The notes below the pieces were generated by a model. The model ran no database searches. It saw nothing but the letters and a program-made list of their open reading frames with translations, and was not told the DNA's origin. DNA of 64,000 bases, taken from assembly GCF_041660805.1 (NCBI RefSeq), contig NZ_JBAZVP010000020.1, forward strand, positions 3,681-67,680, read 5' to 3'. The DNA comes from Mucilaginibacter sp. GTDB lineage: Bacteria; Bacteroidota; Bacteroidia; Sphingobacteriales; Sphingobacteriaceae. The position numbers and the translations under genes are program-made. This document shows positions 38,716-62,773 of this stretch, in pieces. Each line of letters starts with the position of its first letter. Position 1 is the stretch's first letter.

Positions 38716-38842
38716 ACTATTATTGGTTTTAATAGTTCAAAGGTAGGGTGGTATTTAGGCCTGTTTATACTTTGTAATGACCAGTATTTGCTCTGTATTG
38801 ATTTATTGGATATATTTAAATAGATTTTTAGTGCAATGCAGG

Positions 38843-39697
38843 ATGAATGAGATACAACTGGAACGGGTGGAGTTTGAACCGGGCAAATCTTTTAAGCTAT
38901 TTTCGCCACGGTTACGTAATACCTTTTTATGGCATTATCATCCGGAAGTGGAGCTGGTTTATGTTGAGGCTGATGCCGGTATCCGCCATGTGGGCTCGCA
39001 TATATCGGGTTATACCCAAAGCGACCTGGTATTTATTGGCGGTAACCTGCCTCATTTGAATTTTGATTACCGCTTACGCAGCGATTATCATCAGATAGTG
39101 ATACAGCTCCGTACCGATTTTATGGGCGCGGCCATCAGCACATCACCGGAATTTGCGGCAATTAACCGCCTGTTTAAAAAAGCCGGGTTGGGCATTGCTT
39201 TTAATGGCGAAACAAAAGCAATAGTTGCTGAAAAGCTAAAAACTTTGTCTGGCATGAACTCATTTGAACAATTGATAGCACTGATGGATATTTTTCAGAT
39301 ACTGGCGGCATCGAATGAAATGGTTATTTTAAATAACGATGAGACCAGTAAGGAGTTTATTCTGAAAGACAAGATAAGAATGGGGGCCATCTATGAATAC
39401 ATTGATGCTAATTATCATCAAAAGCCGGATGTTAATGTTGTAGCCGGTAAAGTTCATTTAACAACGGCTGCGTTTTGCAGATATTTTAAGCGCCAAACCA
39501 ACATAACCTTTACCGATTTTGTGAATCAATACCGCATTGAGCGCGCCAAGAACCTGCTAATGCAAGGCAAAAACATTACTGAAACCTGTTACGCCATCGG
39601 CTTTGAAAGCCTCTCGTATTTTAACAAGCTGTTCAACAAAATAGTGGGACAGAACCCCTCTGATTTTAAACGGAATTGGTTAAACGATAAAAAGTAA
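38843..39697 (+). CDS. AraC family transcriptional regulator (cupin N-domain)
   Basis: The C-terminal double HTH (FCRYFKRQTNITFTDFVNQYRIERAKNLL...GFESLSYFNKLFNKIVGQNPSDF) is present. It is divergent from the PhyH gene. The ATG at 38843 is preferred over the ORF-track start at 38777. Confidence 0.85.
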   Translation: MNEIQLERVEFEPGKSFKLFSPRLRNTFLWHYHPEVELVYVEADAGIRHVGSHISGYTQSDLVFIGGNLPHLNFDYRLRSDYHQIVIQLRTDFMGAAISTSPEFAAINRLFKKAGLGIAFNGETKAIVAEKLKTLSGMNSFEQLIALMDIFQILAASNEMVILNNDETSKEFILKDKIRMGAIYEYIDANYHQKPDVNVVAGKVHLTTAAFCRYFKRQTNITFTDFVNQYRIERAKNLLMQGKNITETCYAIGFESLSYFNKLFNKIVGQNPSDFKRNWLNDKK

Positions 39698-39915: not shown

Positions 39916-41247
39916 ATGCCTGATCAAATACCACTAAATACCTTTAACTTATTAACGCCGGATAATATAAATATAGCTGTTATAGGCTTAGGTTATGTTG
40001 GTTTACCGCTTGCCGTTGAATTCTCAAAAAAATATTCGGTAGTTGGTTTTGATAAAAAACAGGCTCGGATTGATGAGTTAAACGCCGGCAACGACCGTAC
40101 GCTGGAGATTGATAGCAATGAATTAAAGAAAGTTAAGCGTGCTTCGGGCAGCAATAATGGATTGCTTTTTACATCGGATGTAGGTGATATAAAAAATTGC
40201 AATATCTATATCATATCGGTACCAACACCTACCGACAAGCATAACCGCCCCGACATGCATATGCTTAAAAATGCCTGTGAACTAATAGGATCGGTCATTT
40301 CTAAAGGCGATATTTTCATATTGGAATCAACCGTATACCCGGGTGTGACAGAAGAAATTTGTGTGCCGATCATTGAAAAGATATCAGGTCTTAAACTAAA
40401 CGAAGGTTTTTATGCAGGTTATTCTCCGGAACGGATAAACCCGGGAGATAAGGTGCATACGTTAACCAATATTTTAAAAGTAACATCGGGTTCAACACCT
40501 GAGGCGGCCAATTTTATAAATAACCTGTACGGCACTATTATTACAGCCGGCACGCATAAGGCGCCAACTATAAAAGTAGCCGAGGCCTGTAAGGTTATTG
40601 AGAACTCCCAGCGCGATATTAATATTGCATTTGTTAATGAGCTTTCAAAAATTTTTAACCTGATGCAAATTGATACCCAGGCAGTTTTAAAAGCGGCAGG
40701 TACTAAATGGAACTTTTTAAATTTTAAACCCGGTTTAGTAGGAGGGCACTGTACGGGCGTTGATCCGTACTATCTGGCACAGCGGGCGCAAGAAGTAGGA
40801 TATCACCCGGAAATTATTTTAGCAGGCCGAAGACTTAATGATGGCATGGGTACTTATGTTGCCATGGAAGTTATAAGGCTTATGATTAAGAAGGATATTG
40901 TTGTAAAAAATGCCAATGTTTTAGTATTGGGCTTTACTTTTAAGGAGAACTGCCCGGATGTACGTAACACACGGGTAATTGATATTATTAAAGTTTTAAA
41001 TGATTTTGAAATTATTTGTGACATTTATGATCCATGGGCAAACCCTAAAGAGGTAGCTGATGAGTACCAAATAAATACCATCAATATGTTTGAAAATGTA
41101 AGGGCTAATTATGATGCAATTATATTAGCTGTTGCCCATGATGAGTTTTTGAAAATAGACATCAGCAGTCTAAAAAAGGCACATTCATCAGTAATTTACG
41201 ATATAAAAGCGGTGCTGGATGAGGGTATAATAGATGGGCGTTTATAA
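39916..41247 (+). CDS. UDP-N-acetyl-hexosamine 6-dehydrogenase (TviB/WbpO/CapL type nucleotide-sugar dehydrogenase)
   Basis: 443 aa. NAD motif VIGLGYVGLPLA, catalytic GLVGGHC, and overall TviB-like length and order. Confidence 0.88.
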   Translation: MPDQIPLNTFNLLTPDNINIAVIGLGYVGLPLAVEFSKKYSVVGFDKKQARIDELNAGNDRTLEIDSNELKKVKRASGSNNGLLFTSDVGDIKNCNIYIISVPTPTDKHNRPDMHMLKNACELIGSVISKGDIFILESTVYPGVTEEICVPIIEKISGLKLNEGFYAGYSPERINPGDKVHTLTNILKVTSGSTPEAANFINNLYGTIITAGTHKAPTIKVAEACKVIENSQRDINIAFVNELSKIFNLMQIDTQAVLKAAGTKWNFLNFKPGLVGGHCTGVDPYYLAQRAQEVGYHPEIILAGRRLNDGMGTYVAMEVIRLMIKKDIVVKNANVLVLGFTFKENCPDVRNTRVIDIIKVLNDFEIICDIYDPWANPKEVADEYQINTINMFENVRANYDAIILAVAHDEFLKIDISSLKKAHSSVIYDIKAVLDEGIIDGRL

Positions 41248-41367: not shown

Positions 41368-42411
41368 ATGCAAGTTTTTACTTTAAAGGTCATAAATCTG
41401 CGTTTTGAAACAAGGGATACACTCACGGTTTCATTCAAGCAACCAGCTTTAAAGAAAATTAAATATCTGGCTGGGCAGTACCTGACCCTTATTTTTCGTA
41501 TCAACGGCCGAAGATATATCCGGCCATACTCGTTTTCATCAGCCCCTGGTGTTGATGCCAATCTTGAGGTTACCATTAAAAGAGTACCGGGAGGAGTTGT
41601 TTCAAACCATATTATAGATCAATTAAAGGTTGATGATCTGGTTGAAGTTATGGAACCTATGGGAGATTTTGTTTTAACTGAAAACAATCTTTTACCTAAA
41701 ACACATATTGTATTATGGGGAGCAGGTAGTGGTATAACTCCGCTCATGTCAATTGCAAAATACGCATTACATAAAAATTTGGCAAATCATGTTACACTTG
41801 TGTTTGGCAACCGTAATGAAGAAGACGTAATTTTTAGCAGTAAAATTGTAGAACTAAAAGAACAATATAAAAACCAATTTTCGGCCATACATTTTTTAAC
41901 ACAAGCTGTAATAGCAAGTAACAATCCTTACGTTGTTCAAGGTCGTATAAACCCGGATAATGTTTTGTCTGTGATGCAGAGCGAGGGTGATATTTATGAC
42001 ACGATACATTATATTTGTGGCCCTGCAGGCTTAAAAGAATCTGTGAAAGCAACATTATCAGAATTGAATATTGCGCCTGAAAAAATATATTCAGAAGATT
42101 TTGAAATATTGCGTGATCCTGCAGAATTTGAAAATATAGTTACAAGGATAGTAACGATTAAAAAGGATGGTTTACGTTTACCCGTTGAGGTAGTTAAAGG
42201 TAAAAGTATTCTTGAGGCTGGTTTAGATGCCATGATTGATATGTCGTACTCTTGCCAAACCGGGAATTGCCTGGTTTGTAAAGGACGTTTAATAAATGGG
42301 CAGGTGAAAATGATAGGTATTGAAAAATTACCTGAAGGTTTGCAGCAACAGGAATGCTTGTTATGCAGCAGTTTCCCGCTTACAGATAATGTTGAAATAG
42401 AAGTTGATTAG
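41368..42411 (+). CDS. FNR-type flavin reductase with C-terminal plant-type 2Fe-2S ferredoxin domain (candidate E3 / CDP-6-deoxy-delta-3,4-glucoseen reductase role)
   Basis: 347 aa. FAD motif RPYSFSS (RxYS), NAD(P) motif GAGSGITP and C-terminal C-x4-C-x2-C...C (SCQTGNCLVCKG...ECLLC). It is the first gene of the CDP-sugar cassette. Confidence 0.75.
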   Translation: MQVFTLKVINLRFETRDTLTVSFKQPALKKIKYLAGQYLTLIFRINGRRYIRPYSFSSAPGVDANLEVTIKRVPGGVVSNHIIDQLKVDDLVEVMEPMGDFVLTENNLLPKTHIVLWGAGSGITPLMSIAKYALHKNLANHVTLVFGNRNEEDVIFSSKIVELKEQYKNQFSAIHFLTQAVIASNNPYVVQGRINPDNVLSVMQSEGDIYDTIHYICGPAGLKESVKATLSELNIAPEKIYSEDFEILRDPAEFENIVTRIVTIKKDGLRLPVEVVKGKSILEAGLDAMIDMSYSCQTGNCLVCKGRLINGQVKMIGIEKLPEGLQQQECLLCSSFPLTDNVEIEVD

Positions 42412-42419
42412 ATTAGAAT

Positions 42420-43193
42420 ATGAAAGTTGTACTATTAGCGGGCGGATTAGGTACCAGACTATCTGAAGAAACTACACTGAAACCAAAACCAATGGTTGAA
42501 ATTGGTGGTATGCCCATATTATGGCATATAATGAAAATTTATTCAACATACGGTTATAATGACTTTATTGTTTGCCTGGGCTATAAGGGGTATGTTATAA
42601 AGGAATACTTTGCCAACTATTTTCTGCATAAATCTGATATAACAATTGATTTAAAAGACAACTCCATAAAGGTGCATGATTCACAGGCCGAACCATGGAC
42701 AATTACCCTTGTAGATACAGGGAATGAGTCCATGACGGGCGGTAGGATAAAAAGAATTAAGCCACACGTAAACAACGAGCCCTTTATGCTAACATACGGT
42801 GACGGCGTTAGTGATGTAAACATTGCCGAACTGGTTAAATACCATAAAAGCCATGGTAAGATGTGTACAGTAACTTCGGTACAGCCATCCGGCCGTTTTG
42901 GTGCATTAGATTTAAATGAAGATATGTCTGTGAAATCATTTTTAGAGAAACCTAAGGGTGATGGTTCATGGATAAATGGAGGTTATTTTGTATGCCAGCC
43001 AGAAATTTTTGATTACATAAAAGACGGTGACAGTACCGTTTGGGAACAAAAACCTATGGAAGAAATAGCCAGTGACGGCCAGATGAAAGCTTACAAGCAC
43101 GATGGTTTTTGGCGCCCAATGGATACGCTGAAAGACAAGCACGATTTAAATGAAATGTGGGATGTTGATAAAGCTTCCTGGAAAATCTGGTAA
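42420..43193 (+). CDS. rfbF: glucose-1-phosphate cytidylyltransferase
   Basis: 257 aa. The N-terminus LLAGGLGTRLSEETTLKPKPMVEIGGMPILWHIMKIY...GYKGYVIKEYFANYFLH is nearly identical in pattern to enterobacterial RfbF/DdhA. Confidence 0.92.
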   Translation: MKVVLLAGGLGTRLSEETTLKPKPMVEIGGMPILWHIMKIYSTYGYNDFIVCLGYKGYVIKEYFANYFLHKSDITIDLKDNSIKVHDSQAEPWTITLVDTGNESMTGGRIKRIKPHVNNEPFMLTYGDGVSDVNIAELVKYHKSHGKMCTVTSVQPSGRFGALDLNEDMSVKSFLEKPKGDGSWINGGYFVCQPEIFDYIKDGDSTVWEQKPMEEIASDGQMKAYKHDGFWRPMDTLKDKHDLNEMWDVDKASWKIW

Positions 43194-43196
43194 TCT

Positions 43197-44291
43197 ATGA
43201 TACAGGATTTAAAAGATGTTTATAAAGGAAAAAAAGTTTTTTTAACCGGGCACACTGGTTTTAAAGGCTCGTGGCTGGTTAAAATATTTAGTTTACTTGG
43301 CGCCGAGGTTAAAGGTTATGCCTTAGCACCAGAGAATGAACTGAACCTTTATAGCATTATAAAAGGTGATGAACTTTGTGACTCGGTAATTGCTGACCTG
43401 CGCGATAGAGCGAAACTAAATGAAGCTGTAGGCAGCTTTCAGCCCGATTTTATATTTCATTTAGCCGCACAGCCCCTGGTAAGGCTTTCTTATCAGATCC
43501 CGTCCGAAACGTTTGAGGTAAACGCTATTGGTACTGCAAATGTGCTTGATGCCATGAGGCTGTTAAACAAGCCTTGTAATGCTGTTTTAATTACTACAGA
43601 CAAAGTTTACCACAATAACGAATGGATTTACCCATATCGTGAAACAGACCGCCTTGGTGGCTACGATCCATATAGTGCGAGTAAGGCCTGTACAGAACTG
43701 GTTATTGACTCGTACCGTAATTCCTTTTTTAATACCAATACTTATAGCACTCATCAAAAAGCAATAGCCGTAGGGCGTGCAGGCAATGTAATAGGTGGTG
43801 GCGATTGGTCTAAAGACAGGTTGATACCCGATATTGTAAAGGCTTTGGCAGCTAATGAAGATATAGAGGTAAGAAATCCAAATTCAATAAGGCCATGGCA
43901 GCACGTACTGGAGCCCTTATTTGGTTATTTATTATTAGGAGCAAAGTTAGCCGGTGATCCAATACATTATTCACAAGCCTATAATTTTGGCCCCGATGCA
44001 AATGACACTTTACCGGTAAAAAAAATGGTTGAACTGGCTATTGCAAAATGGGGTAGTGGCCAGTATTTTACCAATATAAAGGATACCCAGCTGCATGAAG
44101 CCGGTTTATTGAAACTGGATATAAGTAAGGCTATTGATGAATTAAAATGGAAACCTTTATTTAACGCTGAAAAAGCAGTTGAATACACAATTAAATGGTA
44201 CAAGATCTTTTATTCCAATAAAGATATGGCCAGTGAATACACCAAAGAACAGATACTTGCATTTTTAAATAATTTTAATGACAACCAATAA
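43197..44291 (+). CDS. rfbG: CDP-glucose 4,6-dehydratase
   Basis: 364 aa. KKVFLTGHTGFKGSWL, YSASK (YxxxK) and a RfbG/DdhB-like C-terminus. Confidence 0.92.
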   Translation: MIQDLKDVYKGKKVFLTGHTGFKGSWLVKIFSLLGAEVKGYALAPENELNLYSIIKGDELCDSVIADLRDRAKLNEAVGSFQPDFIFHLAAQPLVRLSYQIPSETFEVNAIGTANVLDAMRLLNKPCNAVLITTDKVYHNNEWIYPYRETDRLGGYDPYSASKACTELVIDSYRNSFFNTNTYSTHQKAIAVGRAGNVIGGGDWSKDRLIPDIVKALAANEDIEVRNPNSIRPWQHVLEPLFGYLLLGAKLAGDPIHYSQAYNFGPDANDTLPVKKMVELAIAKWGSGQYFTNIKDTQLHEAGLLKLDISKAIDELKWKPLFNAEKAVEYTIKWYKIFYSNKDMASEYTKEQILAFLNNFNDNQ

Positions 44292-45333
44292 AATTGTTTT
44301 AGAAGATCTGGAGGCAATACGTAATTCAACTATTGATTGGCAGCGCTTTGCTGGTAAAACGGTATTAATTACAGGGGCCAATGGTTTTTTGCCGGCATAT
44401 ATGGTAGAAACCTTACTTTATATTAATGCAAAAATAGGTATTGATGTTAAAGTGATTGGGTTGGTGCGGAGCATAGAAAGAGCTAAAAAGCGGTTTATTG
44501 AGTATGCCGGAGATAAAAATCTTACATTTATTGAGCAGGATGTAAGTAAGCCTGTTAAAATTGATGAAAATCAAACAATAGATTTTATAGTACACGCTGC
44601 AAGCCAGGCAAGCCCTAAGTACTATGGCACTGACCCGGTTGGTACCTTAAGCGCTAACGTGCTTGGTACGCTAAACCTAATGACCCTTGCGCGCGAAAAA
44701 AATATAGAATCGTTCTTGTACTTTAGTTCGGGAGAAGTTTATGGGCAAATTGATAACGAACATAACCCTGTTAAGGAAGACTATTATGGATACCTTGATC
44801 CTATGCAGGTACGTTCCTGCTATGGTGAGAGTAAAAGGATGGGAGAGAACATTTGCGTAAGTTATTATAAGCAGTACAACATAAGCGCTAAAGTTGTACG
44901 CCCCTTCCATACCTATGGGCCTGGCATGCAATTGGATGATGGCCGGGTATACGCCGATTTTGTTGCAGATATTTTGAATGAACGCAACATTGAAATGAAA
45001 AGTGACGGATCTGCAAAACGGTCATTTTGTTATTTAAAAGATGCTACTATTGGTTTTTTTATAGTTTTATTGAACGGTACCCCGGGCGAAGCTTATAATG
45101 TAGGCAACCCTAATGAAGAACATAGTATTTTAGAACTTGCAGAAGCCATAATTAAATTAGGCAATGCTAGTTTAAAGGTTATAAAAGTTGATATTACTGC
45201 TGATAACCAGTATTTGAAAAGCCCTTTATTACGTAATACCCCTAATATTGATAAACTGCTGGTTTTAGGATGGAGCCCGCAAACCGATATTATGACCGGG
45301 TTTGAAAGGACCATTAAAAGTTACCTTGTATAA
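44278..45333 (+). CDS. extended SDR (NAD-dependent epimerase/dehydratase/reductase) acting on a nucleotide sugar
   Basis: 351 aa. GANGFLPAY glycine motif and YGESK catalytic YxxxK. Overlaps the rfbG stop by 14 nt. Confidence 0.8.
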   Translation: MTTNKIVLEDLEAIRNSTIDWQRFAGKTVLITGANGFLPAYMVETLLYINAKIGIDVKVIGLVRSIERAKKRFIEYAGDKNLTFIEQDVSKPVKIDENQTIDFIVHAASQASPKYYGTDPVGTLSANVLGTLNLMTLAREKNIESFLYFSSGEVYGQIDNEHNPVKEDYYGYLDPMQVRSCYGESKRMGENICVSYYKQYNISAKVVRPFHTYGPGMQLDDGRVYADFVADILNERNIEMKSDGSAKRSFCYLKDATIGFFIVLLNGTPGEAYNVGNPNEEHSILELAEAIIKLGNASLKVIKVDITADNQYLKSPLLRNTPNIDKLLVLGWSPQTDIMTGFERTIKSYLV

Positions 45334-45352
45334 ATAAGATTTAATACTACCA

Positions 45353-47170
45353 ATGAAAATAAGTGATGCTATAGCCGACTTTTTAGAAGAAAAAGAGATA
45401 AGGCATGTTTTTGGAATTATTGGCGCAGGCAATGCACATATATTCGATTCGATATACAGTAAAGGTTATACTGAAATAGTTTGTGTGCATCATGAACAGG
45501 CTGCCTGTATGGCTATGCAAACTTATTATCGTATTACCGGTAAAGTTACTGCAGTGCTTTTAACAACAGGTGCAGGTTCTACAAATGGTGTAACCGGTGT
45601 AGTTAGCGCCTGGGCCGATTCAATACCCGGCCTGATCATTTCAGGAAATGAGAACTCTAAATTTATCGATCTGCATAAAGATTTGCGTATGTGGGGTGTT
45701 CAGGGATATGACAGTTCGCTAATGGTTGATAAAGTGACCAAATATGCAGGCCGCGTTTTAGATCCTAAAGATATTACCAGGGAATTAAACAAAGCTTACG
45801 ATATTACTACAGAAGGCCGCCCGGGCCCGGTTTGGCTGGATATTCCTATGAATATCCAATCGTCGGTAATTGATGAAACTGCTATTTTGCCCTATGAAAA
45901 ACCAGAAGCTATTAATAATACTAATGACACTTTAAGCAATCAGGTTGGTGAAATTGTAGCTGATCTTAAAAAAGCTAAGCGCCCGCTGTTATGGCTTGGC
46001 CATGGTATTAGGCTGGCCAATGCAGTTGATTTGTTAGAACCTCTGTTAGATCAGTTAAAAATACCTGCACTGGTAACCTGGGCTGGTATAGATATGGTAG
46101 ATTCATACCACCCGCTTGTATATGGCAGGGCGGGCACGTATGGGCAAAGGTGCGCTAATTTTGTACTGCAAAATTGTGATTACTTATTATGCATAGGCAC
46201 ACGCATGGCTATACCACAAATTGGTTATGAAATAAACGAGCTTGCACGCGATGCACAAATTGCAGTGGTAGATATTGATGAACACGAACTGTTAAAATAC
46301 AAAGCAAGGTACAAGCATAGTGTAGCCGCCGATGCAAATTTGTTTTTAACCGAATTGTTGGAACAAACAACAAATTTTAAAACAGATATAAGTCAATGGG
46401 TAACTATATGCGATAAATACAGAACAGAATATCCATGGGTAAATTCATCTGACCATCCGGATAAAGAAGGTTTTATTAATTCATATCCATTTATGGATAA
46501 ATTAAATGCCCATTTAAAGGATGATCAAATTATAGTTACTGATATGGGTACTGCTTTACTGAGTGGCCATCAGGCATTAAAATTAAAAAAAGGCCAGCGC
46601 TTAATGACATCTACAGGTTTAGGTGAAATGGGATATGGCCTGCCGGCTGCTTTAGGTGCATCATTTGCTACAAATAAAGGTGAAGTAATTTGTCTCAATT
46701 GCGATGGTGGTATGATGATGAACCTGCAGGAACTACAAACTATGGCACATCATCAGTTACCAATTAAGCTGTTTATATTTAATAACGATGGTTATTTAAT
46801 GATAAAGCATACGCAGAAAGCATTGTTTAAGGGCAGGGCTGCCGGTACAGACCAAAAATCGGGAGTAAGCTGCCCGGATTTTACTGCTTTGGCAGAGGCG
46901 TTTAAATTTAAAAGTTTCCAGATAAGAACCTGGGAAGATTTTGATGCATATATCCCTCAGATACAGGCCCATAATGGCCCTGTAATATGCGAAGTATTTA
47001 TGCATCCGCAGCAAACATTTGTGCCAAAATTATCTTTAGCAATTCAAAAAGATGGAACATTAATATCTCCGCCACTTGAAGACCTTTCACCATTTATCTC
47101 AAGAAAAGAACTTAAAGCAAATATGCTGAGTGGTTTACACTCAAAATCACTTGAAATTGAGGTGCAATAA
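45353..47170 (+). CDS. thiamine-diphosphate enzyme of the acetolactate-synthase large-subunit fold (YerE-like sugar C-branching candidate)
   Basis: 605 aa with three-domain AHAS-like architecture. The N-terminal Pyr domain carries the catalytic Glu (VCVHHEQAA). The C-terminal ThDP motif is CDGGMMMNLQEL...NNDGY. Confidence 0.8.
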   Translation: MKISDAIADFLEEKEIRHVFGIIGAGNAHIFDSIYSKGYTEIVCVHHEQAACMAMQTYYRITGKVTAVLLTTGAGSTNGVTGVVSAWADSIPGLIISGNENSKFIDLHKDLRMWGVQGYDSSLMVDKVTKYAGRVLDPKDITRELNKAYDITTEGRPGPVWLDIPMNIQSSVIDETAILPYEKPEAINNTNDTLSNQVGEIVADLKKAKRPLLWLGHGIRLANAVDLLEPLLDQLKIPALVTWAGIDMVDSYHPLVYGRAGTYGQRCANFVLQNCDYLLCIGTRMAIPQIGYEINELARDAQIAVVDIDEHELLKYKARYKHSVAADANLFLTELLEQTTNFKTDISQWVTICDKYRTEYPWVNSSDHPDKEGFINSYPFMDKLNAHLKDDQIIVTDMGTALLSGHQALKLKKGQRLMTSTGLGEMGYGLPAALGASFATNKGEVICLNCDGGMMMNLQELQTMAHHQLPIKLFIFNNDGYLMIKHTQKALFKGRAAGTDQKSGVSCPDFTALAEAFKFKSFQIRTWEDFDAYIPQIQAHNGPVICEVFMHPQQTFVPKLSLAIQKDGTLISPPLEDLSPFISRKELKANMLSGLHSKSLEIEVQ

Positions 47171-47179
47171 TTATTCGAA

Positions 47180-48064
47180 ATGAGTAAATTAAAAGTAGCC
47201 ATATTAGGCAGTGGAAACATCGGGACAGACCTGCTGATTAAAATTCAACGTTCTGAACATCTTGATTGTGTACTTTTTATAGGCAGGAATCTTTCTTCTC
47301 CAGGTATGGCAAAAGCTATCAGCCTGGGCGTAAAGGTATCCGACCAAAGTATAAATGCTATTTTAAAAGATCCTGATTGTTGCGATTTAATATTTGACGC
47401 TACATCGGCTAAAGATGCACAGCACCATTGGAACATACTTGAAAAGCTGGGAAAAATAGTAGTAGACATGACCCCTGCAAAAATAGGCCGCCTTTGTATC
47501 CCGGCTGTAAACCTGAACGATGCCATCGCGCTGCGAAATGTAAATATGGTAACATGCGGCGGGCAGGCATCTATACCCATCGCTTACCTTATTGGCCAAA
47601 CACACCCCGAAGTGGAATATATAGAGGTGGTATCCAGCATTGCATCGCGCAGTGCCGGGCCGGCTACACGGTTAAATTTGGATGAGTACATTGAAACTAC
47701 AGAAGAAGGCATACGCATGTTCTCTGGCGCTAAGAAGGCCAAGGCTATTTTAAATTTGAACCCGGCTAACCCCTGCATTGACATGCAGACTACTATTTTT
47801 GCAAAAGTATCCAATCCAAATATCGAGGCATTGACACTTGCTGTTGAAAACATGATAAAAAGCATTAATACATACGTACCAGGTTACCAGTTGCTGGTAG
47901 CACCAATATATGAAAATGGCCGTATAGTAGTAATGGTAAAAGCACAGGGGCTAGGCGATTATCTGCCTAAATATGCAGGCAACCTGGATATTATCAATTG
48001 CGCGGCTATTGCTGTGGCAGAGGAGTATGCAAAAAAACAACAGGAAGGTAACTTAATAAACTAA
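47180..48064 (+). CDS. acetaldehyde dehydrogenase (CoA-acylating), DmpF/MhpF/BphJ family
   Basis: 294 aa. LKVAILGSGNIGTDLLIK, the catalytic-Cys motif NMVTCGGQA and YLPKYAGNLDI are colinear with DmpF as I recall it. Confidence 0.88.
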   Translation: MSKLKVAILGSGNIGTDLLIKIQRSEHLDCVLFIGRNLSSPGMAKAISLGVKVSDQSINAILKDPDCCDLIFDATSAKDAQHHWNILEKLGKIVVDMTPAKIGRLCIPAVNLNDAIALRNVNMVTCGGQASIPIAYLIGQTHPEVEYIEVVSSIASRSAGPATRLNLDEYIETTEEGIRMFSGAKKAKAILNLNPANPCIDMQTTIFAKVSNPNIEALTLAVENMIKSINTYVPGYQLLVAPIYENGRIVVMVKAQGLGDYLPKYAGNLDIINCAAIAVAEEYAKKQQEGNLIN

Positions 48065-48066
48065 TA

Positions 48067-49008
48067 ATGAAATTGACTGAGTTGAAAGAGCTATTTTCAA
48101 ACGGAGAGATTAGCAAAATGGATTATATTGATAATATGCATAGCCTGCATTTATTACTGTTTGACTATACAGAATTCTTAAAAAAATCTGACATTTCTAA
48201 AATAACTATTCAGGACGATTTATTAATAATGACCTCCCGTGAAACTGATTATCATAAAGGTGGGTTGAGTTTTTATTGTGACTTATTGGATAAAAGGAAT
48301 ACGCCTATAGAGGTTCTGAATTTTGGCACCTATGAACCGGAAGAATCGGCTATGCTATACCGCATTATTGAAGAAAATTACACCGTATTTGATATAGGCG
48401 GCAATTTAGGCTGGTATACTAATCATATCGCTCCTTTATTAACAGAAGGAGAAATATATGCTTTTGAGCCCATACCAGAAACTTTTGAAAAGCTCGTTAA
48501 AAATGTTCAGCTAAATGGCTTTGATAACATTACATTAGAAAACTTCGCTTTTTCAGATAAGCAGGATAAAATTAAGTTTTTCTATTCTCCGGCTATGCCC
48601 GGTGCATCTTCGTCACAGAATATAACAGGTGGCAATAATATGCAAGAATTGGAATGTATTACAAATACGGTTGATAATTATGTCGCAGATAATAAAATCA
48701 GCAAATTAGATTTTATTAAATGTGATGTTGAGGGAGCAGAGTTTATGGTGTTTAAAGGCGCTAAAAATACTATTCAAAAATACCATCCTATTGTTTTTTC
48801 AGAAATGCTGCGAAAATGGTCGGCTAAATTTAACTATCATCCCAACGATATAATTAACTTTTTCCGTGAGTTAGGTTATGAATGTTATACTGCCAATCAA
48901 AAAGGTTTGGTTGCTTTTGATATTGTGGATGAAAACACAATAGAAACAAATTTTTTCTTTTTACATACTGATATTCATAAAGAAAAAATTAAACAATTGT
49001 TAGCATAA
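48067..49008 (+). CDS. FkbM family SAM-dependent methyltransferase
   Basis: 313 aa. SAM motif VFDIGGNLGWYT, plus YAFEP and IKCDVEGAE typical of FkbM. Inserted between the DmpF-like and DmpG-like genes. Confidence 0.8.
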   Translation: MKLTELKELFSNGEISKMDYIDNMHSLHLLLFDYTEFLKKSDISKITIQDDLLIMTSRETDYHKGGLSFYCDLLDKRNTPIEVLNFGTYEPEESAMLYRIIEENYTVFDIGGNLGWYTNHIAPLLTEGEIYAFEPIPETFEKLVKNVQLNGFDNITLENFAFSDKQDKIKFFYSPAMPGASSSQNITGGNNMQELECITNTVDNYVADNKISKLDFIKCDVEGAEFMVFKGAKNTIQKYHPIVFSEMLRKWSAKFNYHPNDIINFFRELGYECYTANQKGLVAFDIVDENTIETNFFFLHTDIHKEKIKQLLA

Positions 49009-49053
49009 TACTGAAAATATCAAATGATAATCAGTTAATGAACCGTGCATTAA

Positions 49054-50061
49054 ATGAAACATATACTTATAAGTGACCCTACATTAAGAGATGGTAACCA
49101 CGCCGTTTCGCATCAGTTATCAGCTAAACAAATAGCTGTATACTGCGAAGCTGCGAACAAAGCGGGGGTACCAATTGTTGAAGTTGGGCATGGCAATGGT
49201 TTGGGGGCATCTTCATTACAGGTAGGCGAAAGCCTGGAAACTGATGAGGTATTGCTAACTACCGCACGCAAATATCTTACTGAAAGCAAGTTAGGTATAC
49301 ATGTAATACCCGGTTTTGCTACCATTCAGCGCGATTTAAAAAAAGCAATTGAATGGGGGGTTGATGTTATACGTGTAGCATCGCACTGTACAGAAGCAGA
49401 TATTACGCAGAGGCATATTGGTTACTCGCGCGAAAAGGGTAAAGAAACCTATGGGGTATTGATGATGACCCACATGGCGTCGCCTGAACTTTTAGTAGAA
49501 GAGGCTCATAAAATGGAGCTTTACGGCGCCGAAGGGATCATTATAATGGATTCTGCAGGTGCATATTTACCACTGGATGTTACAGAACGCATAACCGCTT
49601 TGGTTGATGGACTGGCTATTCCGGTTGGTTTTCATGGTCACAATAATTTGGGCATGGGCATAGCTAATAGCATTGCTGCTATTCAGGCTGGCGCTACTAT
49701 GTTGGATGGTACCGCACGGGGCTTTGGCGCAGGTGCTGGTAACGCTCAGTTAGAAGTATTGATAGCCGTTTTAAACAAAATGGGTTATACAACGGGAGTA
49801 GACCTGTATAAAATCCTGGATGCGGCAGATATTGCCGAGAAAGAAATTATGCCGTTGGTACCGGTAATTAAATCGGAAAGTGTAGTGAGTGGATTAGCAG
49901 GCGTGTTCTCGGGCTTTTCAAAACATGTTAACCGGATATCTAAAGAATATAATGTTGACCAGCGCGATGTTTACTTTGAACTGGGTAAGCGTAAGGTAAT
50001 AGCAGGGCAGGAAGATCTGATAATAGAGGTTGTTTTAGATATTGTTAAACGCCAGAATTAA
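49054..50061 (+). CDS. 4-hydroxy-2-oxovalerate aldolase family (DmpG/MhpE/BphI class II pyruvate aldolase)
   Basis: 335 aa. ISDPTLRDGNHA (Asp and His equivalents of DmpG D18/H21), HGHNN (H200/H202), GAGAGNA and GQEDLI are colinear with DmpG. Confidence 0.88.
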   Translation: MKHILISDPTLRDGNHAVSHQLSAKQIAVYCEAANKAGVPIVEVGHGNGLGASSLQVGESLETDEVLLTTARKYLTESKLGIHVIPGFATIQRDLKKAIEWGVDVIRVASHCTEADITQRHIGYSREKGKETYGVLMMTHMASPELLVEEAHKMELYGAEGIIIMDSAGAYLPLDVTERITALVDGLAIPVGFHGHNNLGMGIANSIAAIQAGATMLDGTARGFGAGAGNAQLEVLIAVLNKMGYTTGVDLYKILDAADIAEKEIMPLVPVIKSESVVSGLAGVFSGFSKHVNRISKEYNVDQRDVYFELGKRKVIAGQEDLIIEVVLDIVKRQN

Positions 50062-50062
50062 A

Positions 50063-51115
50063 ATGAAGAAAGAAGCTATAAACGATATAAAGGCCGATTG
50101 CAGGCAATCTTTAGCCGGATACACCAGTTCGCTGGAATGCCTGCGCGATCAAAGCATTTTAGTTACAGGTGGCACCGGCTTTATTGGTAAATGGATAACT
50201 GAAGTGGTTTCTGTATTAAACGATGAAGAAGGCTTTAATATAAAGCTCTATCTTTTGGCCCGCGATATGGAAGATTACCGCGCAGAGGTGCCGCATTTGG
50301 CCGCTTTAAAGTACGTTACATTAATAGAACAGGATATTAGAAATGTAAGTGTATTACCGGAGGATGTACGCTGGATAATCCATGCTGCAGGTTCGCCTGA
50401 TAACCGCACCCATGTAAGCAATCCGCTTAAAACCATCGAAACTTTTTACAGGGGTACACAAGCCTTGTTAGATGCCTGCCTGCGTTTACAGGGGCTAAAC
50501 AAATTTGTGCATTTAAGTTCAAATACAGTATATGGCCATCCTTTAAAATCGTCAGAATTTGGTATTAAAGAAAACGAGATAGGGGTGTCTGACTGTAATA
50601 CTGTAAATGCAACATACAGCGAAGCCAAACGTATGGCCGAGACGATATGTGCGGTATACCGCAATCAGCAAAAGCTACCAATAGTTATAACTCGTCCGTT
50701 CTCATTCATTGGCCCTTACCAGGATCTTGAAAAACCGTGGGCTATTAATAATTTCATCAGAGACAGTATTTTAAACGGCCCTATCAGAATATTAGGTAAC
50801 GAGAATACTGTACGCAGCTATATGTATGGCAGTGATATTGCCTGTTGGTTACTAATGGCGCTTGCCAAAGGTAAAACCGCGGCCACATATAACATAGGCG
50901 GAGATCAGCCTATATCATTGAAAGACCTTACCGGTAAAATCACCTCCAATTTTTCTAATAAAATTGATGTGCTTTTTAAATATTCCAAAGCTTATCCGGC
51001 GCAATCATCTATATCCATACCAGATACTTCGGCTATAAAAAACGACCTTGGCGTTAAGCAACAAATCAGCTTTGAATCGGCGCTAAAAAGAACAATTGAC
51101 TGGTATAAAAAATAA
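50063..51115 (+). CDS. extended SDR (NAD-dependent reductase/epimerase; YerF-like ketoreductase candidate)
   Basis: About 350 aa from the ATG at 50063. The ORF-track start at 50042 overlaps the aldolase gene. GGTGFIGKW and YSEAK (YxxxK) are present. Confidence 0.8.
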   Translation: MKKEAINDIKADCRQSLAGYTSSLECLRDQSILVTGGTGFIGKWITEVVSVLNDEEGFNIKLYLLARDMEDYRAEVPHLAALKYVTLIEQDIRNVSVLPEDVRWIIHAAGSPDNRTHVSNPLKTIETFYRGTQALLDACLRLQGLNKFVHLSSNTVYGHPLKSSEFGIKENEIGVSDCNTVNATYSEAKRMAETICAVYRNQQKLPIVITRPFSFIGPYQDLEKPWAINNFIRDSILNGPIRILGNENTVRSYMYGSDIACWLLMALAKGKTAATYNIGGDQPISLKDLTGKITSNFSNKIDVLFKYSKAYPAQSSISIPDTSAIKNDLGVKQQISFESALKRTIDWYKK

Positions 51116-51156
51116 GGCAGGAACTAAACCTGTGTTACATAAACTAAAATATTACA

Positions 51157-52464
51157 ATGCAACCTTTTAAAAATATCGACTCAAATATTAAAGATCAGTT
51201 ATCTGCTATCATTAAAAAGAACACCACTAAGGAAATCATTGCGGGTAAAAATTATATACCGGTAACCGGTAAAATAGTGGATGAAGAAGATATTTTATAT
51301 GGAGTTGATGCCGCATTAGATGGCTGGTTGACCGCTGGCCGTTTTGCTAATTCTTTTGAATACGATTTTGCCAAATACTTTGGAGCACCCAAAGCATTAC
51401 TGGTGAACTCTGGCTCATCTGCCAATTTGGTAGCCTTTTACGCACTTACTTCTACAAAATTGGGCGACCGTGCAGTAAAACCGGGTGATGAGGTGATTAC
51501 GGTTGCCGCGGGTTTCCCAACTACTGTAAACCCAATGATCCAGTTTGGTGCTATCCCGGTGTTTGTTGACGTTGATATTGCAACACATAACGTAAAAGCC
51601 GAAGATATTGAGGCGGCTGTATCACCCAAAACAAAAGCAATAATGATTGCGCACTCCCTGGGCAACCCATTTAACCTGGATGAGGTGATGCGTGTAGCAA
51701 AAAAATATAACCTTTGGGTAGTTGAGGATGACTGTGATTCGTTAGGTGCAACTTACAGAGGGCAGAAAACCGGTACGTTTGGTGACATATCTACTTTCTC
51801 TTTCTATCCGGCCCATCACATTACTATGGGCGAGGGCGGTGCCGTTTTAATAAATAATCCTGAGCTGGCCAAAGTTGCCGAAAGTTTTAGGGATTGGGGC
51901 CGCGATTGTTATTGCGAACCCGGAAAGGATAATACCTGCGGATGCCGTTTTTCTCAACAATTAGGATCATTGCCTTATGGGTACGATCATAAATATACTT
52001 ACTCGCATATTGGGTTTAACTTAAAAGTTACTGATATGCAGGCGGCATTTGGTGTATCACAATTAAAGAAAATTGATTATTTCGTACAGCGTAGAAGGGA
52101 AAATTTCAAGGCCCTTTATGAACGTATGAAAGAATTGGAAGAGATATTTATCCTACCTGAGCCAACTTTGCATAGCGATCCATCATGGTTTGGCTTTCTT
52201 TTAACCTTACGGGAAGGAGATGCCGCTGACAGGCATATGTTAGTGCAACATTTAGAAGAAAAGATGATTGGTACCCGCTTATTGTTTGGGGGTAACTTAT
52301 TACGTCAGCCTGCTTATGCCAACATAAATCATCGTACAATTGGTAACCTTGAAAATACTGATATTATTATGAATCAGTCTTTTTGGCTGGGGGTTTGGCC
52401 AGGGTTAAATGAGAGCCACTACGATTATATGTTGGACGTTATTAAGGCTTATATTAATAATTAA
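51157..52464 (+). CDS. rfbH: CDP-6-deoxy-L-threo-D-glycero-4-hexulose-3-dehydrase (E1; PMP/2Fe-2S DegT-family enzyme)
   Basis: 435 aa with a DegT/DnrJ/EryC1 fold. His replaces the Schiff-base Lys (SFYPAHHIT). Cys spacing is exactly C-X57-C-X1-C-X7-C (DDC...[12 protein letters not shown]). Confidence 0.92.
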
Positions 52465-52706: not shown

Positions 52707-55226
52707 ATGAGACTACTGTACAAAGCCAATTTTAAATATAAATATTTCCTTTTATCGGTTTTATGTTGTTTTGCAATGTTGCTTGTAAGGCCGGCATTCG
52801 CCCAAACTATTCCTTCTAACCTGTCTAATGTAAATGTTAACGAGTTATCTGATGCTCAGATAAGGCAAATAATGCAGCAGGCGCAAACAAATGGCTTAAC
52901 CGATGACCAGTTAATGCAAACTTTAGAAGATCGTGGCCTGTCATCAGAACAATCAAAAATACTGCAAAACCGTATTAACGGTATTAAAAAGGCTAATGGT
53001 GCAACCAATGATAAACCCTTAAAATCAAAGCAGGAGGACAATGAATTTCAATCACAAAGCAGGGGGTTGAATTATAAACCTGATACCCTTATTGATACAC
53101 AAAGAACCCAAAAGATAGTGAACATGTTTCAACCAAAAATATTTGGTGCTGATATGTTTAAAAATACTAATTTAAAGTTTGAGCCTAATCTAAAAATAGC
53201 CACACCTGTAAATTACATTGTGGGCCCCGAAGATCAATTAAATATCAGCGTTTATGGTAACTCTTTAGTAAACTGGAAGCTTGATGTATCGCCGGAAGGT
53301 AATGTTAATATACCCGGCGCTGGTATATTGAATGTTGCAGGTAAAACTATTGAACAGGCTACCGCATCAATAAAAAGTAAATTAATTGCAAATAATTATG
53401 CAATTGGCAGGGGTACAGACGTGCAGGTCAGTTTGGGTAATATCCGGAGTATAAAAGTAATAATGGTAGGAGAGCTTGTAAAGCCTGGTACTTATACACT
53501 ACCATCATTGGCAACGGCATTTAATGCTTTGTCTTCTGCAGGCGGGCCAAATGATATAGGTTCATACAGAAAAATAGAAATAATAAGAAATAATAGGGTT
53601 ATAAGAACTTTAGATATTTATGATTTCCTGGTTAAGGGCAGTCAGAAAGATAATATTTCATTACAGGATCAGGATGTAATACGTGTGCCATCTTACCGTA
53701 TCCGTGTTGATTTAAGAGGCGAAGTAAAAACGCCCGCACTATTTGAGGTTTTACCCGGCGAAAATTTAGATGATGTTATCAGATTTTCCGGAGGTTTTTC
53801 TGACCAGGCGTACACTGCACGCATAAAGGTTACACAAGTGAGTGATCAGCAACGCCGTATCACCGATGTTTTTGAAAACGACTATAAAAACTACATCCCG
53901 CTGCGCGGTGATAAATATGTAGTTGACAGGATACTAGACAGATATACTAATCGTGTAACTATTTTAGGCGCAGTTTTCAGACCCGGTGAATTTGAATTGC
54001 AAAACGGATTAACTGTATCACAATTAATTAAAAACGCAGGTGGTTTAAAAGAGGATGCCTTTACGGGGCGGGGAAGTATTATCAGATTAAATACTGATAA
54101 TTCAACACAGCAGCTTTCATTTAATGTAAATGATGTGTTAAATAAGGCTTCGGCAGATATACGTTTGCAAAGAGAAGATAGTGTAACCATATCATCAAAA
54201 TTTGATCTGCGTAATCAATACAAGATCACTATTAAAGGTGAAGTAAGAAAGCCCGGTGATTTTAATTATGCCGATAGCATGAAAGTTGCCGATCTTATAA
54301 TCAGGGCCGGAGGCTTTACAGAAGGAGCAAGTGCAAAACGTATTGAAGTATCGCGCAGAGTATTTGACAGTGATCCAAGAGCGATAAACACTAAAGTTGC
54401 ACAAGTTTATACCGTTAATGTTAGTGCCGATCTTAAAACGGAGGATACAAATTTTTCATTGGAGCCTTATGATATAGTTTCTGTTTACAGTTTACCGGGA
54501 TATGAAACACAAAAAACGGTTAAAGTTGAGGGTGAGGTGATATATCCGGGTTGGTATACGATACAAAAGAAAAATGAAAAAATTTCTGATGTGATTGCAC
54601 GTGCGGGTGGCTTAACACAATCGGCAGATGTTGAAGGCGGTAGCCTTAAACGTGATAATGCAGCAGTATTAGGTATAGATAAAACTAAAATTGATACAAA
54701 CGCACTAAACAAAGAGCGTACTGACCGTTTAAGAAGGCTTCAACGAACTTATAAAGATTCAACAACTACTGATACAACCCAATTAAGAAATAATTATGTA
54801 GGTATTGATCTTAAAAATATATTACTTAAACCCGGTGCAAATCAAGATCTTATTTTAGAGAATGGAGATGTCTTAAGGGTACCTAAACAACAGCAAACAG
54901 TTAGAGTGAACGGCGAAGTGCTTTACCCAAGTGCAGTAGTTTATACTAAAGGGAAAAGTTTTAGAGGTTTTGTTCTGAATGCCGGTGGGTTCTCACCCAA
55001 TGCTTTAAAAAGCGGAGCATATGTTGTTTATCCTAATGGAACGGTTAAGGGTACAAGAAAATTCTTATTTTTTAATAGTCATCCCAGTGTTAAACCCGGC
55101 AGTGAAATTTATGTTCCTAAGAAGCCTGAAAAGAAAGGAAACACTACTCAGGAAATTTTAGCTTTTACAACAGGTTTAGCTTCATTAGGAGCGATTATAT
55201 TAGGAATATTAAACTTATCAAAGTAA
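52707..55226 (+). CDS. wza: outer-membrane polysaccharide export protein (Wza-like, multiple SLBB domains)
   Basis: 839 aa with a signal peptide. Poly_export motif YIVGPEDQLNISVYGN, then several repeats of the SLBB pattern (G.V..PG.Y.......L.D.I..AGG), and a C-terminal hydrophobic helix. Confidence 0.85.
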   Translation: MRLLYKANFKYKYFLLSVLCCFAMLLVRPAFAQTIPSNLSNVNVNELSDAQIRQIMQQAQTNGLTDDQLMQTLEDRGLSSEQSKILQNRINGIKKANGATNDKPLKSKQEDNEFQSQSRGLNYKPDTLIDTQRTQKIVNMFQPKIFGADMFKNTNLKFEPNLKIATPVNYIVGPEDQLNISVYGNSLVNWKLDVSPEGNVNIPGAGILNVAGKTIEQATASIKSKLIANNYAIGRGTDVQVSLGNIRSIKVIMVGELVKPGTYTLPSLATAFNALSSAGGPNDIGSYRKIEIIRNNRVIRTLDIYDFLVKGSQKDNISLQDQDVIRVPSYRIRVDLRGEVKTPALFEVLPGENLDDVIRFSGGFSDQAYTARIKVTQVSDQQRRITDVFENDYKNYIPLRGDKYVVDRILDRYTNRVTILGAVFRPGEFELQNGLTVSQLIKNAGGLKEDAFTGRGSIIRLNTDNSTQQLSFNVNDVLNKASADIRLQREDSVTISSKFDLRNQYKITIKGEVRKPGDFNYADSMKVADLIIRAGGFTEGASAKRIEVSRRVFDSDPRAINTKVAQVYTVNVSADLKTEDTNFSLEPYDIVSVYSLPGYETQKTVKVEGEVIYPGWYTIQKKNEKISDVIARAGGLTQSADVEGGSLKRDNAAVLGIDKTKIDTNALNKERTDRLRRLQRTYKDSTTTDTTQLRNNYVGIDLKNILLKPGANQDLILENGDVLRVPKQQQTVRVNGEVLYPSAVVYTKGKSFRGFVLNAGGFSPNALKSGAYVVYPNGTVKGTRKFLFFNSHPSVKPGSEIYVPKKPEKKGNTTQEILAFTTGLASLGAIILGILNLSK

Positions 55227-55234
55227 GTTAACTA

Positions 55235-56317: not shown

Positions 56318-56631
56318 ATACAATTAAATGTAGTAGGTCGTTTATAAATGAAACAATCGTTAATAGTCGTGTTTTTGTTCTACTTTTTACTTTGTTAACT
56401 TAGCTACAGTGGGCATGTAAAAGCATTATTAAAATCCTATTAAAATAGCACCGCGTTGGTTGTATTTATGATGTATTCACGCCTAATGCCCAATTCTTAG
56501 TTAAATCTTACTAAGGTCTTCACCCTGAATGCAATGTCAGGAAAAAATAATGGACAGCTATATAATTGGTTGATTATTTGAATAAATTAATAAATGTACA
56601 ACAAGAAGAATCAACAAAACAACATTTGAAT

Positions 56632-57420: not shown

Positions 57421-57474
57421 TATTGAATTAGATTTTGAACGAATTAGTTATCAAAAGTTAAGTATATACATTCG

Positions 57475-59693: not shown

Positions 59694-59814
59694 TTAGATT
59701 ACAATCTCTTCATTATAATAGCTTGAAAAATCATTTTTTTATAAAAAATATAGCCATTATACACGTAGATGCCGCTCTTCTAGCATGTTTTATTGAACAT
59801 AGCTAAACATAAAT

Positions 59815-60891: not shown

Positions 60892-60898
60892 CACATTC

Positions 60899-61984: not shown

Positions 61985-61989
61985 ATTCG

Positions 61990-62772: not shown

Positions 62773-62773
62773 T

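Follow-up and report, generated by a model that had tools for sequence, protein, structure and literature searches.

A JanthE-type carboligase and a DmpF/DmpG pair in a CDP-3,6-dideoxyhexose cassette of Mucilaginibacter: a candidate pathway to an erwiniose-type branched sugar

Gene content of the cassette

We analysed a 64,000-nucleotide stretch of a Mucilaginibacter sp. genome (positions 3,681 to 67,680 of contig NZ_JBAZVP010000020.1; hereafter the window), in which a cassette at 41368-52464 combines the genes of a cytidine diphosphate (CDP)-3,6-dideoxyhexose pathway with those of a thiamine diphosphate (ThDP)-dependent carboligase, an aldolase and an acylating aldehyde dehydrogenase. Ten plus-strand open reading frames (ORFs) fill the cassette, with intergenic gaps of -14 to +45 bp (Table 1). 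Gene functions were called with Pfam and NCBIfam profiles, and NCBIfam bit scores were judged against the curated cut-offs. A first-pass annotation, made from the DNA letters alone, had described eleven nearly gap-free genes on one strand. The shared strand and the tight packing are borne out, but the count is ten, which is also the number of genes itemised in that annotation. The eleventh same-strand neighbour (39916-41247) lies outside the segment. Each of the gene functions listed in that annotation was confirmed by the profile searches.

Table 1. Genes of the branched-sugar cassette, followed by its neighbours, in window coordinates
Feature	Coordinates	Strand	Evidence or remark
FNR-family reductase with C-terminal [2Fe-2S] ferredoxin domain	41368-42411	+	Pfam FAD_binding_6, NAD_binding_1, Fer2
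RfbF/DdhA glucose-1-phosphate cytidylyltransferase	42420-43193	+	TIGR02623 429 bits, cut-off 300
RfbG/DdhB CDP-glucose 4,6-dehydratase	43197-44291	+	TIGR02622 474 bits, cut-off 278
SDR1, extended short-chain dehydrogenase/reductase (SDR)	44278-45333	+	Pfam/NCBIfam; variable slot beside the ThDP gene
Three-domain ThDP enzyme, JanthE-type carboligase	45353-47170	+	853 bits to JanthE (8rph)
DmpF/BphJ-like acylating acetaldehyde dehydrogenase	47180-48064	+	TIGR03215 383 bits, cut-off 282
FkbM-family S-adenosylmethionine (SAM) methyltransferase	48067-49008	+	Pfam Methyltransf_21 80 bits; TIGR01444 109 bits
DmpG/BphI-like 4-hydroxy-2-oxovalerate aldolase, class II	49054-50061	+	TIGR03217 391 bits, cut-off 286
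SDR2, second extended SDR	50063-51115	+	directly 3' of the aldolase gene
RfbH/DdhC (E1) CDP-4-keto-6-deoxyglucose 3-dehydrase, pyridoxamine phosphate and [2Fe-2S]	51157-52464	+	NF011936 700 bits, cut-off 423
UDP-glucose/UDP-ManNAc dehydrogenase	39916-41247	+	Pfam UDPG_MGDP_dh N-terminal, central and C-terminal domains
Assembly and export genes: Wza-like SLBB exporter, chain-length-determinant-like protein, Wzx, GT2, EpsG (Wzy-like), GT4, GT2, hexapeptide acyltransferase	52707-63346	+	Pfam

The ThDP enzyme is related to JanthE

The ThDP enzyme of the cassette had been read in the first-pass annotation as a YerE-type flavoenzyme. In a sequence search of the PDB, JanthE of Janthinobacterium sp. 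HH01 (8rph) is far ahead of all other matches with 853 bits, followed by the YerE homologue of Pseudomonas protegens (PpYerE, 5ahk) with 267 bits and by acetohydroxyacid synthase (AHAS) I of E. coli with 227 bits. The alignment to JanthE covers residues 2-600 at 62% identity, and the JanthE residues M406, Y297 and K567 are all kept in the window enzyme. In its ThDP-binding motif, carried as LNCDGGMMMNLQE, GDG is replaced by CDG; the same unusual replacement has been described in the ThDP site of JanthE (PMC12188165, PMC12247030). PpYerE, rebuilt from the PDB alignment 5ahk, and a YerE-like protein of Yersinia bercovieri (locus L083) served as stand-ins for YerE. The window enzyme is 32% identical to the former and 30% to the latter, and both of these YerE-type proteins carry GDG. 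Judged by its sequence, the window enzyme is thus orthologous to JanthE and related to YerE only distantly, and the earlier assignment has to be given up on this point. It is probably FAD-dependent as well. A Mucilaginibacter sp. protein in the database matches the window protein with 100% identity.

JanthE, which has been called 'YerE-like', accepts 2-keto acids, 4-hydroxy-2-oxovalerate among them, and joins them to aldehydes and to non-activated ketones (PMC12188165, PMC12247030). Carboligation to a ketone is predicted for the window enzyme by way of JanthE, for which this activity was demonstrated. The JanthE gene itself lies in a similar setting in strain HH01 (L081 6805-15782), where the order is RfbF-RfbG-RfbH-JanthE-SDR(313 aa)-DmpF-DmpG-SDR(351 aa)-glycosyltransferase. 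This gene context points to a role for JanthE in making a branched sugar.

A biosynthetic acetolactate synthase (IlvB, IlvI or IlvG), one of the identities that the first-pass annotation had named as speaking against its own proposal, was considered and rejected. The window protein reaches 350 bits with TIGR00118, for which the cut-off is 538 bits, and stays far under the cut-offs of the other AHAS models. No ilvN, ilvC or meta-cleavage genes were found near the ThDP gene in the window.

The gene module recurs in many phyla

A genome scan with one genome per species returned relatives of the ThDP enzyme in 197 species, and the best 80 loci (61-85% identity) were analysed by ORF mapping. These loci are spread over no fewer than 14 phyla, among them Bacteroidota, Pseudomonadota, Verrucomicrobiota, Armatimonadota, Acidobacteriota and Spirochaetota; Pectobacterium is absent among the matches listed in the genome scan and in the protein searches. 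The CDG motif and M406 are kept in 80 of 80 loci, a count that has to be read with NCDGGMMM having been among the six patterns used to find the loci. Genes for DmpF-like and DmpG-like proteins accompany the ThDP gene in 78 of the 80, and RfbF, RfbG and RfbH are encoded in most of them. In Mucilaginibacter agri R11 (L016), the order of the ten genes is identical to that of the window. The window is one instance of a conserved and widespread module.

Two loci depart from the common pattern in having no DmpF and DmpG genes. In one of them (L074), the available stretch ends about 3.5 kb past a YerF-type SDR gene 3' of the ThDP gene. The other (L053), from a Sphingomonas metagenome-assembled genome, truly lacks the pair: its segment 7500-16300 encodes a JanthE-type enzyme, an SDR1-type protein, a GT2 glycosyltransferase, FkbM and RfbF/G/H, with no aldolase, dehydrogenase or SDR2. 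It represents a natural 'minimal' variant, which would have to draw on another donor.

A further arrangement was seen in Pseudomonas sp. P7548 (L084 10001-17554) and in two other loci (L078 and L080), where a YerE-type ThDP gene (70% identity to PpYerE) and a JanthE-type gene stand in tandem in an O-antigen-like cluster. In P7548 the tandem is followed by genes for an SDR1-type protein, FkbM, DmpF and DmpG. The tandem suggests that two different branching enzymes operate from one locus.

An aldolase pair with a distinct residue signature

The DmpF-like protein matches the structure 7z3s with 289 bits and DmpF (1nvm_B) with 220 bits, and the catalytic cysteine motif VTCGGQASIP is kept. The aldolase is 40-41% identical to DmpG and HsaF. 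Alignment to DmpG (1nvm) shows that the metal-binding and catalytic residues D18, H21, H200 and H202 are retained. Two other positions differ: the window aldolase has a histidine at the position of BphI Leu87 (DmpG Leu88) and a phenylalanine at that of BphI Tyr290 (DmpG Tyr291). This His/Phe pair is present in 78 of 78 cluster-linked aldolases, whereas the catabolic enzymes DmpG and HsaF carry Leu/Tyr. At the position of BphI Leu89, the cluster-linked enzymes keep a bulky residue throughout (Ile in 66, Met in 12).

These positions have been probed by mutagenesis of BphI. The wild-type enzyme is strictly 4S-specific, the Y290F variant loses stereocontrol and the two-residue variants L87N/Y290F and L87W/Y290F are 4R-specific, while Leu89 restricts the length of the aldehyde (PMC3962088). 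The natural His/Phe pair would fit an aldolase with the 4R acid as its product, and a bulky residue at position 89 would fit a short aldehyde such as acetaldehyde, which we propose that the DmpF-like enzyme forms from acetyl-CoA. By its sequence, the window aldolase belongs to the DmpG/BphI protein family but falls outside the catabolic Leu87/Tyr290 subtype.

The 4R acid is also the enantiomer used in the published erwiniose pathway of Pectobacterium atrosepticum SCRI1043. The erwiniose cluster encodes the ThDP enzyme ErwE, the reductase ErwF, the BphI-like aldolase ErwI and the BphJ-like dehydrogenase ErwJ, together with the genes for CDP-4-keto-3,6-dideoxyglucose (PMC9306805). The donor of ErwE is (R)-4-hydroxy-2-oxopentanoate, whereas pyruvate is rejected. 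Steitz et al. (2022) proposed that the aldolase pair feeds this donor to ErwE, which adds it to CDP-4-keto-3,6-dideoxyglucose to give a four-carbon branch, and they ruled out the order in which the branch is attached before the aldol step (PMC9306805). A gene set of this type (ThDP enzyme, BphI-like and BphJ-like proteins, NAD(P)H oxidoreductase and CDP-sugar genes) is complete in the window cassette. Because the gene set matches the erwiniose scheme, DmpF and DmpG are best regarded as core partners that would make the donor, rather than as an add-on to yersiniose chemistry; the first-pass annotation had assigned them to a later modification of the sugar, a view that sits poorly with their presence in nearly all of the related loci. 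With 4-hydroxy-2-oxopentanoate as the donor, the branch would have four carbons and not two. By analogy with the erwiniose scheme (PMC9306805), a four-carbon branch is the most likely outcome, in place of the pyruvate-derived two-carbon unit suggested earlier.

Acceptor pathway and the permuted reductase

The E1 dehydrase (RfbH) of the window matches the Yersinia E1 structure 3bcx with 578 bits. In this alignment, His220, which takes the place of the pyridoxal phosphate-binding lysine, is kept, as is the [2Fe-2S] motif C-X57-C-X1-C-X7-C formed by Cys193, Cys251, Cys253 and Cys261. RfbF, RfbG and RfbH are 61%, 47% and 57% identical to DdhA, DdhB and DdhC, respectively, of the ddh-yerE-yerF locus of Y. 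bercovieri. Homology at the equivalog level and the retained catalytic residues indicate that the route to the acceptor, a CDP-4-keto-3,6-dideoxyhexose, is genuine.

The reductase at the head of the cassette is less conventional. Its Pfam domains follow the order FAD-NAD-Fer2, opposite to the Fer2-FAD-NAD order of AscD/DdhD in Yersinia (L083 4785-5774) and Pseudomonas (L084 5796-6785), so that the window protein does not have the N-terminal [2Fe-2S] domain, followed by FAD and NAD domains, of an AscD/DdhD-type E3. Identity to the Yersinia AscD-like protein is 27% and extends over the FNR part only, and the best NCBIfam match is a PaaE-like model, under that model's cut-off. The permuted reductase heads the cassette in 17 of the 80 loci, all of them from Bacteroidota. 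Because its cofactor domains and its position in the cassette suit the same job, it is plausible that it serves as the electron donor to E1, as a non-orthologous replacement of E3.

Two reductases and an optional methyltransferase

SDR1 has its best PDB matches in UDP-xylose synthase (173 bits) and the CDP-6-fructose reductase of C. jejuni (8v4g, 135 bits; PMC10918830). It has the Ser/Tyr/Lys triad and the cofactor motif TGANGF, and is 27% identical to SDR2. The first-pass annotation had expected a reduction of the YerF type, which finds no counterpart here: the YerF-like protein of Y. bercovieri, used as a query, matched neither SDR1 nor SDR2 of the window. The same query matches, with up to 50% identity, the 313-aa SDR family of 18 other JanthE-type loci, including that of HH01.

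When all SDRs of the related loci were clustered into families, the slot beside the ThDP gene proved to be occupied by one of three types that are nearly mutually exclusive: SDR1 in 34 loci (the window counted), SDR3, a paralogue of SDR2, in 21, and the YerF type in 18. SDR1 is the sole SDR both in the Sphingomonas locus, which lacks DmpF, DmpG and SDR2, and in the Pseudomonas locus L084, which has DmpF and DmpG. We somewhat favour the view that SDR1 reduces the C1' ketone of the branch, filling the role of YerF while not being a YerF homologue. Our grounds are that its best structural relative besides UDP-xylose synthase is the CDP-6-fructose ketoreductase, that it stands alone as SDR in the two loci just named, and that it holds the slot filled elsewhere by YerF-type reductases.

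SDR2 is the constant member of the two. It, or a divergent variant (family F5), is encoded in 73 of the 80 related loci, always 3' of the aldolase gene. SDR2 also has the Ser/Tyr/Lys triad, with Asn-Thr where 4,6-dehydratases have Asp-Glu. Its PDB matches are weak (84 bits), and the relatives of both SDRs are all generic extended SDRs. Two other roles were considered and set aside: a dehydratase role for SDR2, given the missing Asp-Glu pair, and an RfbE-like role for the window SDRs, given that CDP-tyvelose 2-epimerase is not among the PDB matches. Judged by these features, SDR2 would be a reductase or an epimerase that carries out a second NAD(P)-dependent step.

The gene for the FkbM-family methyltransferase separates the DmpF and DmpG genes of the window. 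The products of DmpF/DmpG-type genes normally form a channelling complex. The FkbM gene has a GC content of 0.318, compared with 0.42-0.44 in the flanking genes, and is missing from the closest relatives of the window locus (L001-L003); it looks like a recent insertion. FkbM genes were found in 19 of 33 SDR1-type loci and in none of the 47 others (p=7e-10). The window protein also shows a weak Pfam match to the RfbT family of Vibrio cholerae, and enzymes of the FkbM family usually act as O-methyltransferases. FkbM is most likely an optional tailoring gene for a putative O-methyltransferase that acts on the branched sugar, and the distribution of the two genes indicates that SDR1 and FkbM form an optional tailoring pair.

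The surrounding polysaccharide locus

Downstream, the cassette is flanked by genes for a Wza-like exporter, Wzx, EpsG, three glycosyltransferases and an acetyltransferase, by which it is assigned to a Wzx/Wzy-type polysaccharide locus; the first-pass annotation had likewise placed it in a Bacteroidota polysaccharide locus. Two ORFs of this flank (55235-56317 and 56566-57420) have no Pfam match. The UDP-sugar dehydrogenase gene next to the cassette is an upstream gene of the same locus and is not part of the branched-sugar cassette. Over the genes for Wzx, GT2, EpsG, GT4, GT2 and the acetyltransferase (56500-63346), the GC content is 0.28-0.33, as is typical where the serotype-specific portion of a polysaccharide locus is exchanged horizontally. 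Just upstream of the locus, at 37723-39697, a minus-strand gene for a PhyH-family dioxygenase and a divergent gene for an AraC-type regulator are present. Promoter and terminator scans of the window returned sites that were no more numerous than in shuffled sequence, and an Rfam search of the window gave no match.

Discussion

We consider it likely that the cassette makes a CDP-activated 3,6-dideoxyhexose with a four-carbon, acyl-derived branch at C4, of the erwiniose type and probably O-methylated, which is destined for a Wzx/Wzy-dependent surface polysaccharide. A C4-branched 3,6-dideoxyhexose was also the core of the first-pass proposal and is still the best reading, given a complete route to CDP-4-keto-3,6-dideoxyhexose and a ThDP carboligase of a ketone-accepting kind. 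In the pathway that we envisage, RfbF and RfbG would convert glucose-1-phosphate to CDP-glucose and then to CDP-4-keto-6-deoxyglucose. E1 would strip the 3-OH group to yield CDP-4-keto-3,6-dideoxy-D-glucose, with electrons supplied by the FNR/[2Fe-2S] reductase. The DmpF-like enzyme would reduce acetyl-CoA to acetaldehyde, which the DmpG-like aldolase would join to pyruvate, giving (4R)-4-hydroxy-2-oxopentanoate. The JanthE-type enzyme would decarboxylate this keto acid and attach the resulting 3-hydroxybutanoyl group to the sugar at its C4 ketone, generating a tertiary alcohol. SDR1 would then most likely reduce the C1' ketone of the branch, SDR2 would contribute a further redox reaction or an epimerisation, and FkbM would add a methyl group. 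The finished sugar would presumably be transferred by one of the glycosyltransferases of the locus, and Wzx, EpsG and Wza would assemble and export the polymer. The branching step draws on orthology to JanthE, an enzyme characterised both biochemically and structurally. For the aldolase/dehydrogenase step, the identity of the donor and the tailoring, we rely on gene co-occurrence, the published erwiniose pathway and the stereochemical residue signature.

Several points weigh against this proposal. The authors of the JanthE studies state that the substrates it uses physiologically are yet to be identified, and in vitro the enzyme is promiscuous, accepting also pyruvate, 2-oxobutyrate and 2-oxovalerate (PMC12188165, PMC12247030). 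The products of JanthE-type clusters are predictions. The likeness to ErwE, ErwF, ErwI and ErwJ (WP_011093010 to WP_011093013) is drawn from their described functions, and the 4R signature is read from mutants of another aldolase, BphI. The erwiniose scheme needs one reductase; the cassette has two SDRs, neither of them of the YerF type, and the scheme offers no step for SDR2. The candidate E3 is not an AscD orthologue, as its reversed domain order and the 27% identity indicate. Finally, the Sphingomonas locus L053 combines the ThDP enzyme, SDR1 and FkbM with no DmpF and DmpG, so that a different donor is possible.

This last locus, together with the acceptance of pyruvate by JanthE in vitro, would suit a yersiniose-type product, in which a two-carbon branch is derived from pyruvate and reduced by an SDR in the manner of YerF, while DmpF and DmpG act elsewhere or later. 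We regard such a product as unlikely: DmpF and DmpG accompany the ThDP enzyme in 78 of 80 loci, and the window has no orthologue of YerE or YerF. By established enzymology, the reaction of class II pyruvate aldolases is between pyruvate and an aldehyde, and an acetyl-branched sugar offers them no obvious substrate. The erwiniose study argues in the same direction, both by the rejection of pyruvate by ErwE and by excluding 'branch first, aldol later' (PMC9306805). The chemistry that we favour could also run with another donor, either with propionyl-CoA leading through propionaldehyde to 4-hydroxy-2-oxohexanoate and a five-carbon branch, or with a keto acid such as 2-oxobutyrate. DmpF/BphJ-type enzymes are known to act on propionaldehyde as well, and JanthE prefers 2-oxobutyrate and 2-oxovalerate with model acceptors. 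In vitro, 4-hydroxy-2-oxohexanoate is an even better substrate of ErwE than the pentanoate (PMC9306805 Table 1). Set against this are the natural product of Pectobacterium, erwiniose, which has a four-carbon branch (PMC9306805), and the bulky Ile or Met at the residue that governs aldehyde length (BphI Leu89) in 78 of 78 cluster-linked aldolases. Acetyl-CoA is, moreover, far more abundant than propionyl-CoA. On balance, a different donor seems quite improbable.

It is scarcely credible that the ThDP enzyme, DmpF and DmpG are stray metabolic genes, namely an acetolactate synthase and a remnant of aromatic meta-cleavage that came to lie in a polysaccharide locus by chance. Automatic annotation does name the ThDP protein 'acetolactate synthase large subunit', and the NCBIfam equivalog cut-offs for DmpF and DmpG are passed. 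Yet the score with the AHAS model stays below its cut-off, genes that would accompany such functions (ilvN, ilvC, meta-cleavage) are missing nearby, the same module is tied to RfbF/G/H across at least 14 phyla, and both stereocontrol residues differ from those of the catabolic aldolases in 78 of 78 cases.

If the erwiniose-type pathway operates as proposed, its end product may be a chemically undescribed sugar, an O-methylated 3,6-dideoxy-4-C-(1,3-dihydroxybutyl)hexose or else a form with another stereochemistry or oxidation state that arises through SDR2; we see the case for and against this as evenly balanced. The pathway would differ from those of Yersinia and Pectobacterium in the non-YerF ketoreductase SDR1 and FkbM, the 4R-selective DmpG-type aldolase and the permuted E3. 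The claim of the first-pass annotation that such a sugar would be new to organisms of this kind holds in part. Nothing relevant came from searching the literature for the gene combination or for sugars of the yersiniose type in Flavobacteria or Bacteroidota, and no such sugar is reported from Bacteroidota in the literature searched. The cluster type, however, has been in print since 2022, a later survey by the same group catalogued more than 200 clusters of this sort in 2024, as cited in PMC12247030, and relatives were found in 197 species here. Systems of this kind are widespread and have been published before; the new elements are the occurrence in a Mucilaginibacter and some variant features, namely two non-YerF reductases, FkbM and the permuted E3 candidate.

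Branched-chain surface sugars are rare and chemically hard to detect, and they often shape immune or phage recognition. The window is a clean case, from the Bacteroidota, of a cluster type worked out before in Pectobacterium and mycobacteria, and the general understanding of the pathway is unchanged by our findings. The consistent gene context of the JanthE family points to 4-hydroxy-2-oxopentanoate and CDP-4-keto-3,6-dideoxyglucose as physiological substrates. Were the product indeed an undescribed sugar, the whole JanthE (CDG-motif) family would gain a physiological role. By the two-residue signature, aldolases of the biosynthetic type, presumably 4R-selective, can be told apart from the catabolic 4S-specific ones, and the modular variation of the reductase and methyltransferase slots should allow sugar variants to be predicted.

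Comparison with known systems

The yersiniose A pathway of Y. pseudotuberculosis O:6 (DdhA-D, YerE and YerF), for which the Y. bercovieri locus and PpYerE served as proxies, shares with the window the acceptor pathway and the type of reaction, in which a ThDP enzyme would add an acyl anion to a CDP sugar at its C4 ketone. Unlike the window, Yersinia has no aldolase and dehydrogenase genes, and its two-carbon branch comes from pyruvate; the window has no YerF-type reductase, and the domain order of AscD/DdhD is the opposite of that in the window reductase. The catabolic pairs DmpG-DmpF, BphI-BphJ and HsaF-HsaG belong to the same two families as the window pair, with genes that are adjacent in most loci and catalytic residues that are kept. 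In contrast to these, the window pair would work in the synthetic direction, has Leu87/Tyr290 replaced by His/Phe and is encoded by genes with an FkbM gene between them.

A methyltransferase is also part of the putative cluster of Rhodopseudomonas palustris CGA009 for the C6-branched, methylated sugar 'ropiose' (PMC9306805 Scheme 4, PMC12247030). As described, this cluster resembles the window cassette in having a SAM-dependent methyltransferase beside a ThDP enzyme, an aldolase and an oxidoreductase, and differs in the type of aldolase and in the longer (C6) branch. JanthE (8rph, 8rpi and 8rpj; Lanza et al. 2024, 2025) is an orthologue of the window enzyme, with 62% identity, the CDG motif, the shared M406, Y297 and K567 and the same cluster type. 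It has, however, been studied as a biocatalyst, and in HH01 the slot beside its gene holds a YerF-type 313-aa SDR, with neither FkbM nor an E3 gene in the stretch examined. The erwiniose host is an enterobacterial plant pathogen, whereas the window host is a soil bacterium of the Bacteroidota. The window further departs from the erwiniose cluster in its two non-YerF SDRs (ErwF having been found starting from YerF), in FkbM and in the domain-permuted E3 candidate. What the two clusters would share is the same functional gene set, built around an aldolase-made keto acid as the donor for branching at C4.

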